Source of the DNA: a virus | Virus record (IMG/VR): IMGVR_UViG_3300047510_001256 | Span: 64,001 to 128,000 of that record | DNA length: 64,000 bases | Strand: one strand, 5' to 3' | In this document: one piece after another, positions 32,697 through 35,353 of the stretch | Layout of the letters: the number at the start of each line of letters is the position of its first letter | Numbering within the stretch: the stretch's first letter is position 1 | Notes under the pieces: model-generated | Told to the model about the DNA's origin: nothing | Database searches by the model: none | Seen by the model: only the letters and a program-made list of their open reading frames with translations | Translations under genes and position numbers: made by a program

Positions 32697-32994
32697 TGGT
32701 GACACTATTGATGTTGATATTGATCTGGGTTTTAGTATCACACTCTCTCAAAGAGTAAGATTAAAAGATATTGATGCTGCTGAAACTAGAACAACAGACC
32801 TAACAGAAAAAGCAGAAGGTCTAGCAGCAAAAGCATGGCTAGAAAAAGAACTCTCCCGTGAGGGAGAGTGGATTATTGAAACAACAAAAGAGGACAAGTA
32901 TGGAAGAATACTTGGCACTCTTTATCTTGTTGGTGATCCCGTCACATTAAATGAAAGGATGTTGAATGAAGGTATTGCTAAACCTTATTCGTAA
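32656..32994 (+). CDS. Thermonuclease (SNase-like)
   Basis: VIDGDTI, RVRLKDIDAAE, DKYGRILG. Confidence 0.92.
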   Translation: MYQYKIKKINRVIDGDTIDVDIDLGFSITLSQRVRLKDIDAAETRTTDLTEKAEGLAAKAWLEKELSREGEWIIETTKEDKYGRILGTLYLVGDPVTLNERMLNEGIAKPYS

Positions 32995-34124
32995 AAGTCG
33001 GCAGCACCAAAATCATCTGTGTAATTTGGAATCTCAAAGTCAATCACTGGTGGTGAAATCTGAGGATCATCATAGTATAGATTATCATCAAATGGTGGAA
33101 TCTCTTCGTGCCAATGATCTCCTGGATTTTGCTCTATGAATCTTCCAATGAAATCATCGTAATGCTCACTAGGAGAAGCATCATTTTCAGCATTATTGTG
33201 AGGCCCTGAATTACCTGGAGCATCATCATCTCCATTTCCCCATCCGTTGTCTTGATGGTTATCAGGTTTTCCTCCACCTCCTCCATTGCCAGGAGAATTT
33301 TCCGAATCATTATTTTGTCCTCCATCATTCTTTGAATCGCCTGGAGGTTGGTTTGGTTCGGGGTCTTGTCCATCTTGGTGATTACCTTTACCTGGATTAT
33401 CGGATGCTCCTGTCTCTCCATCCCATGGCGAGTTACCGACTTCTTTATCATTACCAGGATTACCTTTGCCTGGATCTTCAGGATCAGGCTCCTCAGGATC
33501 CTCTGGGTCTGGGTCTTCTGGATCTTCAGGATCAGGCTCCTCAGGATCTTCAGGATCCTCTGGGTCAACTGGTGGGTCCACAGGAGGATCTACAGGGGGG
33601 TCCACAGGCGGATCAACGGGTGGTTCAACAGGAGGGTCTATAGGCGGATCAACTGGCGGAACAGGGGGGTTCACAGGAGGATCAACTGGTGGGGCAGGGG
33701 GGTCTACAACTTGTTCTTGTTCTGGTAGATCGCCAACAACAATGCTGTCGTCAACATTATTCCCACTCCCAAAAGATATAGTATCAAGATTAAAAGAGAT
33801 GTCATTTTTTCCAACGGGTGTAATGTCTATTCCATAAGCTTTAAATGCTTCTGCTGGAGTGATACTAGTTGGGATAATAGTATCTCCAGAAGATCCAAAG
33901 GATTCTAATGCTGGATTGGAAAAATCAATTCCTGCCGTAACTTCAACTTCACCTACATTAATTGATGGAGCATCTTCTACTGGTGTAGTGATACTTACAT
34001 CACCAACTGGTGTATATCCACCAGGGAAACGAGCAGCAGCAGTAGGATCATGTGGTATTTGATCCTGAGATTGCTGACTCGTCTTGAGTGTTTCTTCGCC
34101 TTGTAATCCTAACTGATCTTCCAT
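32985..34124 (-). CDS. Acidic Pro/Asp/Gly-rich low-complexity late protein
   Basis: 379 aa with PPVD and PEDPE repeats; late-like AATAAATA at 34144-34151. Confidence 0.75.
   Translation of the reverse strand: MEDQLGLQGEETLKTSQQSQDQIPHDPTAAARFPGGYTPVGDVSITTPVEDAPSINVGEVEVTAGIDFSNPALESFGSSGDTIIPTSITPAEAFKAYGIDITPVGKNDISFNLDTISFGSGNNVDDSIVVGDLPEQEQVVDPPAPPVDPPVNPPVPPVDPPIDPPVEPPVDPPVDPPVDPPVDPPVDPEDPEDPEEPDPEDPEDPDPEDPEEPDPEDPGKGNPGNDKEVGNSPWDGETGASDNPGKGNHQDGQDPEPNQPPGDSKNDGGQNNDSENSPGNGGGGGKPDNHQDNGWGNGDDDAPGNSGPHNNAENDASPSEHYDDFIGRFIEQNPGDHWHEEIPPFDDNLYYDDPQISPPVIDFEIPNYTDDFGAADFYE
33470..33705. repeat. Coding tandem repeats (12-nt PPVD units; 31-bp exact repeat at 48-nt period)
   Basis: ctggatcttcaggatcaggctcctcaggatc at 33470 and 33518; degenerate 12-mers to about 33705. 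Confidence 0.85.
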
Positions 34125-34151
34125 AATTTTGCCTATATAGAACTATTTATT

Positions 34152-34652
34152 TTATGTTGACCATAAAGCACCTTCTGCTTTTCTTCTTCTCATCAGTCCT
34201 GCTTCTACCTTAGTGCCAGGATTACGATACAACGCTAATGCTCCTGGAACATCATTCCATCTTCCAGATTGTAATGCCTGAGTGATTGTTTTGAAGTCAG
34301 GACTTCCATAGAAGTTAGCGCCAAGATTATAAGCAAAAGATAATAGTGCTCCTCGTTTCTTATCGCTCATCTGATCCCAGTAAGGAATCTTTTTCAACTT
34401 AGGAATGAACTGAGTTTTGATTTGATTAATTAAAAGATCATCTGCTTCTTTTTGTGTGATCTTATCAGTAATTTTAAATGGTTTCCCATCAAAGTTTCGT
34501 GTGCTTCCCCATCCTATGGTGATAGGAAGTCCTCCAGTGTATGGATCGTAGTAGGCATCTAATTCACATCCCTCAAATTCCTTAATTAAAGCAACACCAA
34601 CCAAAGGAACTTCATCAGGATTGTTTGCCCGATTGGAATTTATGGTTGGCAT
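34152..34652 (-). CDS. GH24 phage lysozyme (endolysin domain)
   Basis: LIKEFEG, AYYDP, TIGWG, ALLSFAYNLG, GLMRRRKAE. Confidence 0.93.
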   Translation of the reverse strand: MPTINSNRANNPDEVPLVGVALIKEFEGCELDAYYDPYTGGLPITIGWGSTRNFDGKPFKITDKITQKEADDLLINQIKTQFIPKLKKIPYWDQMSDKKRGALLSFAYNLGANFYGSPDFKTITQALQSGRWNDVPGALALYRNPGTKVEAGLMRRRKAEGALWST

Positions 34653-34654
34653 GT

Positions 34655-35353
34655 CTACTTTTTTGCTTCAAAGATTCTACCCCAACCATCACTACCTTTG
34701 GGACACCATCGCTTCGCCAGTTCAGATCTCTTATACACAGCACCCTTGCCATTGGTTACGGGTCCAGTATAACCATCGTTGAGAGAACCATATGGATCAT
34801 TCACAACATAGTCTTCACCTTTCTTACCAATAACTACAGCCATGTGCCCACCAGTAGGAGCAGATAAAGGACCACGATGATAGAACCCGATAACAACAGG
34901 TCTCCCAGCAGCAAGCTGACGATCAAGTTCGGCAAAATTAAGATTATACTCAAAGCGTGAATCAATTCCAAAGTCTTTAAGAACTTTGGTTTGAACTGAG
35001 TGATCAGTTGAGTCGCCAATAGCGAATACCTTTCTAACATAGGCATCATCTCCCTTGGGACCAGGCAATGATCCTGGTTTGAAATACTCTAGTGCCATAG
35101 CACAGGCAGATGAATTACAGGTTCTCTGGGCATCTCTGTAGTTATCTGTCTGTGGAAAGAATGGCACATCTAATACTGATGGCACTGCTGGAGCTACTGC
35201 TTTTTCTCTGAATGTTTTAACCCACTCAGCAGTATCTTCCATTTCTTCTGGTGCCTTTGCTTCAAGCACCTTCTCAAGTAATTCTACTCCAGCAATATGC
35301 TTTGGATTCTTTTCATCGTAATGCTTAAAAAAGTTATGTAAATCAATTTTCAT
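34655..35353 (-). CDS. C39-like cysteine peptidase (putative endolysin) with N-terminal domain
   Basis: FPQTDN..RTCNSSACAM (Cys), GGHMAVVIG (His), VNDPYG (Asp); ends in A_AAA_AAG_TAG. Confidence 0.88.
   Translation of the reverse strand: MKIDLHNFFKHYDEKNPKHIAGVELLEKVLEAKAPEEMEDTAEWVKTFREKAVAPAVPSVLDVPFFPQTDNYRDAQRTCNSSACAMALEYFKPGSLPGPKGDDAYVRKVFAIGDSTDHSVQTKVLKDFGIDSRFEYNLNFAELDRQLAAGRPVVIGFYHRGPLSAPTGGHMAVVIGKKGEDYVVNDPYGSLNDGYTGPVTNGKGAVYKRSELAKRWCPKGSDGWGRIFEAKK

Follow-up and report, generated by a model that had tools for sequence, protein, structure and literature searches.

A predicted programmed -1 ribosomal frameshift between peptidase and muramidase in the lysin gene of a cyanomyovirus

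In the dnaX gene of Escherichia coli, two products (tau and gamma) arise from each mRNA by a -1 ribosomal frameshift on the heptamer A_AAA_AAG, which is followed by a stem-loop a few nucleotides (nt) downstream and is read in a host with a single tRNA-Lys(UUU). Slippage on this heptamer is particularly likely if both Lys codons are read by one and the same tRNA-Lys(UUU) (PMC5009743). The same heptamer lies at the end of the upstream open reading frame (ORF) in the IS3 family (IS911 and IS150), where a tiny overlap of the 0 and -1 frames and a 3' structure accompany the production of OrfA and of the two-domain fusion OrfAB. Here, we describe an A_AAA_AAG junction between a C39-like peptidase ORF and a GH24 lysozyme ORF in the window, i.e., the 64,000-nt stretch of DNA that spans positions 64,001 to 128,000 of virus record IMGVR_UViG_3300047510_001256 and belongs to the genome of a cyanomyovirus (144.7 kb, 38% G+C). 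We consider it probable (roughly 0.85) that the last two sense codons of this putative phage peptidoglycan peptidase gene are the site of a programmed -1 ribosomal frameshift of the dnaX/IS3 type. The original prediction, made from the letters of the window, had read the signal in the same way, and that reading is supported by the conserved phase of the heptamer, by covariation in the stem and by the existence of fused homologues.

The locus departs from each of these systems in several respects. The dnaX shift ends translation early and yields a shorter product, whereas the lysin shift would bypass a stop codon and add a catalytic domain. The upstream Shine-Dalgarno sequence is a proven stimulator in dnaX, whereas the GGGGT of the lysin gene is a candidate only, and no sequence or Rfam relationship between the dnaX cassette and the lysin site was found (an Rfam search of 34450-34800 at a permissive threshold returned chance-level matches only). 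The IS3 signals reside in transposase genes of mobile elements and have no homology to this gene of a lytic phage. The tail assembly chaperone G/GT of tailed phages is likewise a conserved case of phage recoding, yields a short and an extended protein, and keeps its position while its sequence drifts; however, it concerns another gene family and function, usually employs other heptamers (e.g., G_GGA_AAG in lambda), and is not an enzyme fusion. With regard to protein content, the in-frame cyanophage endolysins of phrog_3617 (gp211 of ACG-2014f and the metagenomic loci L094-L102) possess the same N-terminal module, C39_2 and GH24 domains and a homologous AK-VE junction, but they are encoded by one ORF in which the heptamer is not conserved and no stem is found, and they would provide the bifunctional protein only. 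The endolysins of S-CREM1 and S-CBS2 (phrog_10051) have the same domains in reverse order.

The mechanism proposed here is a textbook one of the dnaX/IS3 type, and its use in a lysin gene is apparently unreported. Within an incomplete coverage of the literature, we came across no description of a frameshift in the lysin of a cyanophage, nor in any other endolysin, in line with the earlier remark that it was not known to have been described for cyanophage lysins, and a large recoding review makes no mention of endolysin, lysozyme or cyanophage.

The junction between the peptidase and lysozyme frames

All features of the lysin locus are on the minus strand and are given as window positions:

34655-35353, minus strand: 0-frame ORF of 232 aa, consisting of a ~60-aa N-terminal module and a C39-like (papain-fold) cysteine peptidase; last residues ..FEAKK, then TAG
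35165-35353, minus strand: N-terminal helical module (KIDLHNFFKHYDEKNP..) ahead of the peptidase domain (phrog_3617 positions 1-53)
34679-34683, minus strand: GGGGT, 14 nt 5' of the heptamer, a candidate for an internal Shine-Dalgarno-like element (from the sequence)
34668-34670, minus strand: -1-frame TGA stop within TTT GAA, after which the -1 ORF opens 3 nt before the heptamer (from the sequence)
34658-34664, minus strand: slippery heptamer A_AAA_AAG in X_XXY_YYZ phase, with 0-frame codons GCA AAA AAG (from the sequence and relatives)
34655-34657, minus strand: 0-frame stop TAG directly 3' of the heptamer; the -1 frame reads G-TAG-AC as Val-Asp
34594-34652, minus strand: candidate 3' stimulatory stem-loop (from folding and covariation in relatives)
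34152-34667, minus strand: -1-frame ORF with a linker and a GH24 (phage lysozyme) muramidase domain (PF00959; ATG at 34652-34650, stop at 34154-34152)
34572-34574, minus strand: GAG codon of the catalytic Glu in the motif ..LIKEFEG.., 3' of the stem

The 232-aa peptidase ORF (35353-34655), with a GGAGA 5 nt upstream of its ATG at 35353, was correctly described beforehand as ending in GAA GCA AAA AAG TAG with A_AAA_AAG at 34664-34658. From its opening at 34667, the -1 frame reads AGC AAA AAA GTA GAC ATG CCA into the 166-aa ORF at 34652-34152, confirming that it leads directly into the lysozyme as had been claimed. The two frames overlap by 10 nt, most of which is filled by the heptamer, and the predicted transframe junction of this phage is ..FEAKKVDMPTINSNR. 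Folding returned a 10-bp pairing (including two G-U pairs) between the arms ATGCCAACCA (34652-34643) and TGGTTGGTGT (34603-34594), which begins 5 nt after the heptamer, at the distance given in the original prediction, and encloses a small inner hairpin (34633-34628 / 34619-34614). Its minimum free energy (MFE) is -20 kcal/mol, with a z-score of -2.26 against dinucleotide shuffles and of -2.7 in the comparison of junction types described below. The lysozyme ATG at 34652 is 2 nt past the TAG and sits inside the 5' arm of the stem; inspection of the sequence ahead of it showed no GGAG-like or Shine-Dalgarno motif, as had been noted previously.

In the proposed mechanism, ribosomes would decode GCA AAA AAG and be paused there by the hairpin 5 nt downstream, allowing two tRNA-Lys(UUU) to move back by one base and pair with A AAA AAA. 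If they remain in frame, ribosomes would stop at TAG and release the 232-aa protein, comprising the N-terminal module and the C39-like endopeptidase, while slipped ribosomes would read G-TAG-AC as Val-Asp and continue through the linker and the GH24 muramidase to give a ~400-aa protein with two activities. Both the peptidase alone and its fusion with the muramidase would then come from one mRNA, and how much of each is made would depend on how efficiently ribosomes shift. The occurrence of the shift, its efficiency and the role of both products in lysis are what we infer from the arrangement.

Domain searches matched the peptidase ORF to PF13529 (Peptidase_C39_2) with 40.1 bits (Pfam cut-off 24) and the lysozyme ORF to PF00959 (Phage_lysozyme) with 78 bits (Pfam cut-off 22.3). 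The peptidase motifs are conserved, with the Cys (SSAC) in 103/103 homologues and the His (GGH) in 102/103; the catalytic Glu of the lysozyme lies in ..EFEG.., with an Asp nine residues on, and the motif is kept in all homologues. Solved GH24 endolysins matched the lysozyme in a sequence search of the PDB (E-values down to 2.7e-12), and the same search with the peptidase gave no match. Both window ORFs are collinear on a single PHROG of 405 positions (phrog_3617), occupying 1-235 and 244-404. The AlphaFold (AF2) model of a fused homologue (L095; mean pLDDT 82) comprises a helical N-terminal module, a papain-like domain and a GH24 domain; its peptidase part matches staphopain, the C39-like peptidase 3erv and the C39 domain of PCAT1, and its GH24 part matches 9kbq with a target-normalised TM-score of 0.90. 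By these domain matches and models, the window ORFs have the hallmarks of a C39_2 cysteine peptidase and a GH24 phage lysozyme. Peptidase_C39_2 is among the endolysin domain types that have been tabulated (PMC5017753).

The N-terminal module belongs to no Pfam family, and a search of the ESM Atlas gave no match. A ~55-aa helical module of this kind (..IDLHNFFK.YDE.NP.H..) also heads the stand-alone lysozymes of DSL-LC03 and DSL-LC02; the window module matched the DSL-LC03 lysozyme (L003:2275-2943) with a BLASTP E-value of 2e-15. In S-CREM1, the module is placed between lysozyme and peptidase.

Conservation of the heptamer, frame and stem

Searching IMG/VR with the window peptidase returned 80 loci with 71-81% amino-acid identity, to which cultured phages were added. 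Among cultured phages, Synechococcus phage S-PM2 is the closest (71% nt identity), and it has the gene context nrdB - resolvase - peptidase - lysin in common with the window. An in-phase A_AAA_AAG was present in 73 sequences from IMG/VR and cultured phages (S-PM2 included), representing 46 distinct junctions. Thus, when we asked whether the heptamer and the -1 phase are conserved among homologues, a check that had been suggested at the outset, both proved to be kept in all 46. The first A belongs to a GTA codon in 23 junctions, to GCA in 21, and to ACA and ATA in one each; that is, the residue before Lys-Lys varies (V/A/T/I) while the third base is A in every junction. The 0-frame stop follows the heptamer directly in 36/46 junctions and one codon later in the other 10, and the frames overlap by 10 nt in 33, by 13 nt in 12 and by 19 nt in one. 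At every locus of the frameshift type, the lysozyme is in the -1 frame, and in the relatives its ORF is open for 155-168 codons with the catalytic motifs intact.

The dependence of the downstream product on the shift can be judged from the start codons that the -1 frame offers after it opens and before it reaches the catalytic Glu. Among 44 distinct junctions with the A-type heptamer, 24 have no ATG, GTG or TTG in this interval, 15 have GTG or TTG only, and five, including the window, have an ATG; 39/44 are therefore without ATG. In S-PM2, the peptidase ends GCA AAA AAG TAA and the -1 frame runs open into a lysozyme in which ATG, GTG and TTG are all missing as far as ..LIKEFEG..; the first possible start is a TTG beyond this motif. 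The S-PM2 record annotates only a 72-aa "putative lysin" (p157, L001:2513-2731), a fragment that leaves out the catalytic Glu, and an independently sequenced S-PM2 deletion mutant has an identical junction. Phylogenetic comparison was made with a quick tree, which is poorly resolved; in it, the A-type sequences form a clade of their own (SH-aLRT 96%), and the five relatives nearest to the window by path length (L006, L007, L011, L018 and L014) are all without ATG. As judged from the sequences, most relatives could make an active muramidase by a frameshift only.

AAAAAAG as such is not rare in this genome, with 52 copies in 144.7 kb compared to ~49 expected from composition, and eight copies are in phase inside ORFs of at least 70 aa. 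Only two of the in-phase copies stand next to a stop and lead into a long -1 ORF, namely the lysin site and a site at 43188-43182. The question of a chance origin of the lysin site is decided by comparison with its relatives. The copy at 43188-43182 (minus strand), an in-phase A_AAA_AAG within an identical GAAGCAAAAAAGTAG, closes a 240-aa ORF of an unrelated late gene, and the -1 ORF that comes after it has 87 aa.

S-CAM7 (57% identity) and two metagenomic relatives have peptidases that end GTT TTT TTT CCA CAG TAG, placing a U_UUU_UUU in phase, and the run is followed 5 nt later by a stem (GTAGAACC/GGTTCTAC) that is unlike the A-type stems. Here too, the lysozyme is in the -1 frame and has no start; the S-CAM7 record holds a 90-aa "lysin" fragment (gp246, L088:2145-2417) with the catalytic Glu outside it. 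In the quick tree, the S-CAM7 clade nests among in-frame fusions. These fusions, whose existence among the homologues had also been posed as a check, occur in ACG-2014f and nine metagenomic loci (L094-L102) as single proteins of 398-406 aa; in L095, C39_2 spans 63-191 and Phage_lysozyme 269-399. Their junction, GWGRIFDAK-VEEKK.., agrees with the predicted transframe peptide GWGRIFDAKK|VES... Hence, GTA GAA (Val-Glu) in the fusions and the stop-holding G-TAG-AA in the frameshift forms are homologous, and codons at the heptamer position vary freely in the fusions (GCG AAA, GCC GAA, GCT AAG and GCT ACG). Fusions in the reverse order (lysozyme - N-terminal module - peptidase) are those of S-CREM1 and S-CBS2. 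The S-N03 "endolysin" was considered as a further peptidase-lysozyme fusion and rejected, as Pfam finds no lysozyme domain in it.

Split arrangements with independent lysozyme starts also occur among the relatives. In L020, L023, L024, L030, L043 and L080, the heptamer is missing and the lysozyme starts at an ATGA overlap with an extra ~55-aa N-terminal stretch, which is not significantly similar to the N-terminal module of the peptidase (E = 0.53). S-SRM01 (L002:2190-2260), L008, L015 and L066 keep A_AAA_AAG together with an ATGA stop/start overlap and a short linker. The S-SRM01 subgroup has probably moved from frameshifting to translational coupling.

All junctions without ATG fold to a hairpin, with an MFE of -8 to -23 kcal/mol and a spacer of 0-8 nt (mostly 2-7) between heptamer and hairpin in the MFE folds. 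The arm sequences are highly diverse (e.g., GTTCTATTC/GAATAGAAC, TCAACACCAC/GTGGTGTTGA and CCAACTAAC/GTTAGTTGG, with AGCTCTAC/GTAGAGCT in S-PM2). The 3' arm is part of the coding sequence just ahead of the catalytic motif, and its three registers are offset from each other in steps of one codon. The 5' arm falls in the free linker, where it has followed these changes. RNAalifold was therefore run separately on each register group, with the following results:

S-PM2 register group: compensatory double changes in 5/10 pairs; broken pairs nearly nil
Second register group: compensatory double changes in 3/9 pairs; broken pairs nearly nil
Register group of the window: compensatory double changes in 0/10 pairs; one-sided changes of G-U type only; two broken cells

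The stability of the region relative to shuffled sequence also differed among junction types:

A-type heptamer without ATG (n = 35): median stem z-score -4.1
S-CAM7 type, U-type heptamer (n = 2): stem z-scores -3.9 and -5.4
Natural in-frame fusions (n = 8): median stem z-score -0.4
Heptamer with overlapping ATGA and short linker (S-SRM01, L008, L015 and L066; n = 4): z-score ~0 for three and -2.4 for L066

These comparisons support the view that the stem is maintained by covariation in the relatives and is present only where a shift would be needed. Sister sequences on the peptidase tree (e.g., L026 and L029) can differ in stem register (alignments A2-A4, loci L006-L085), which suggests that the stem turns over rapidly or that the lysozyme module recombines.

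Decoding and competing explanations

The phage psbA is 92-94% identical to copies from Synechococcus and Cyanobium, including 92% to that of Synechococcus sp. MIT S9451, whose complete genome was used as a proxy host. Using Infernal to find tRNAs and ARAGORN to type them, we identified 43 tRNAs in MIT S9451, among them one tRNA-Lys (UUU) and none with CUU; the suggestion that the host might lack tRNA-Lys(CUU) was thus borne out in this proxy. The phage itself encodes 17 tRNAs, one of which is a tRNA-Lys(UUU) located outside the window (genome G000:C1:37295-37366; L113:96-167). A tRNA-Lys(UUU) was also found in S-PM2 and in the contigs of L029 and L033, which carry the A-type cassette with stem. 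It is absent from the complete phages S-CAM7, ACG-2014f, S-N03 and S-SRM01, which are fused, U-type or stem-less, and BLAST alone did not find it in the incomplete records of the A-type contigs L074 and L075. The resulting association with the A-type cassette (4/6 versus 0/4 records) is confounded by phylogeny and incomplete contigs, but the phage tRNA-Lys(UUU) may be linked to A_AAA_AAG recoding. A more speculative extension, which we think rather unlikely, is that the frameshift acts as a regulated dial, in which phage tRNA-Lys(UUU) would accumulate during infection, raise slippage and shift the proportion of bifunctional to peptidase-only product over the cycle.

Several observations weigh against a programmed frameshift at this locus or weaken individual parts of the case. 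The z-score of the window stem is modest and its register group is without double compensation, while the four junctions of the S-SRM01 type keep the heptamer without a stem; the heptamer can thus persist alone, perhaps owing to a selected Lys-Lys tail. The GGGGT does lie 14 nt upstream of the heptamer, as predicted, and may act as a stimulator; in all homologues, however, it is set by obligatory Trp-Gly codons (TGG GGN), and because these codons dictate the motif, its conservation is uninformative on such a role. Its spacing to the slippery run is also ~5 nt in S-CAM7 versus 14 nt in the window. The tRNA-Lys complement was fully checked in one proxy genome. Finally, the window phage has a lysozyme ATG, unlike its nearest relatives, and free lysozyme could be made from it by re-initiation.

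This last point leads to the alternative that the window lysozyme is mainly or only a free 166-aa protein, with ribosomes that terminate at TAG melting the stem and re-initiating at the ATG, and with the heptamer and stem as relics. The ATG at 34652 is indeed only 2 nt beyond the stop, the S-SRM01-type junctions (S-SRM01, L008, L015 and L066) have an ATGA overlap and have lost the stem while retaining the heptamer, and split genes with their own starts exist. Nevertheless, we judge this account improbable, considering that the ATG has no Shine-Dalgarno sequence and is buried in the 5' arm of an intact -20 kcal/mol stem, and that the five nearest relatives by tree path have no ATG. In place of the ACG of relatives, the ATG is a change that preserves pairing (as G-U) and is probably incidental. 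Because this change keeps a G-U pair inside an intact stem, we regard the window ATG as secondary; some free lysozyme may come from it when ribosomes terminate and re-initiate, a route that can coexist with frameshifting.

The shift in frame might instead arise during transcription, if RNA polymerase slipped on the A6 run (U8 in S-CAM7) and added one base to some mRNAs. A homopolymer run marks the shift site in A-type and U-type junctions alike, and runs of at least 8 can support such slippage, e.g., in T. thermophilus dnaX (cited in PMC5009743). However, the A run has a length of six without exception, with a G next to it, and six is short for slippage by a polymerase. Neither the conserved X_XXY_YYZ phase nor the hairpin a few nt (mostly 2-8) further on would be needed by a polymerase, making this explanation very unlikely. 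Still less weight, close to none, falls to the idea that the junction is a homopolymer sequencing error in a truly fused gene or that the lysozyme is a decaying pseudogene, even though homopolymers are error-prone and the S-PM2 and S-CAM7 records annotate lysin fragments only. The same state recurs in 73 sequences that were assembled independently, two independent genomes of S-PM2 show it, the lysozyme ORF remains open for its 155-168 codons with intact catalytic motifs, and true fusions carry A3 at the site rather than A5 or A8. Sequencing error and pseudogene are thus excluded for practical purposes, because of the many independent assemblies and the intact lysozyme ORFs. A programmed ribosomal frameshift remains the reading that we favor.

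With respect to the surroundings of the gene, the lysozyme stop is immediately followed (34151) by a late-promoter-like AATAAATA. Next comes a 379-aa ORF (window 32985-34151, minus strand) rich in Pro/Asp/Glu repeats (PVDPP.., DPEDPE..) and no Pfam or PHROG match.

Implications for cyanophage lysins

We found no described case in which one mRNA gives both a single-activity and a dual-activity cell-wall hydrolase, as is predicted here. With regard to annotation, ~40 metagenomic lineages are without a muramidase gene model that covers the catalytic Glu. The prediction is directly testable, with S-PM2 on Synechococcus WH7803 as a laboratory system.

Within one gene family, the locus and its homologues show a series that comprises in-frame fusion, a predicted A_AAA_AAG shift, a predicted U_UUU_UUU shift and split genes. 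The stem keeps its distance to the heptamer while its 3' arm moves by codons, and this provides material on the origin and maintenance of recoding signals. If the phage tRNA-Lys(UUU) did adjust the shift during infection, the timing or completeness of lysis would vary across the infection cycle, and the repeated switching among fusion, two heptamers and split genes would reflect selection on the proportion of the products.

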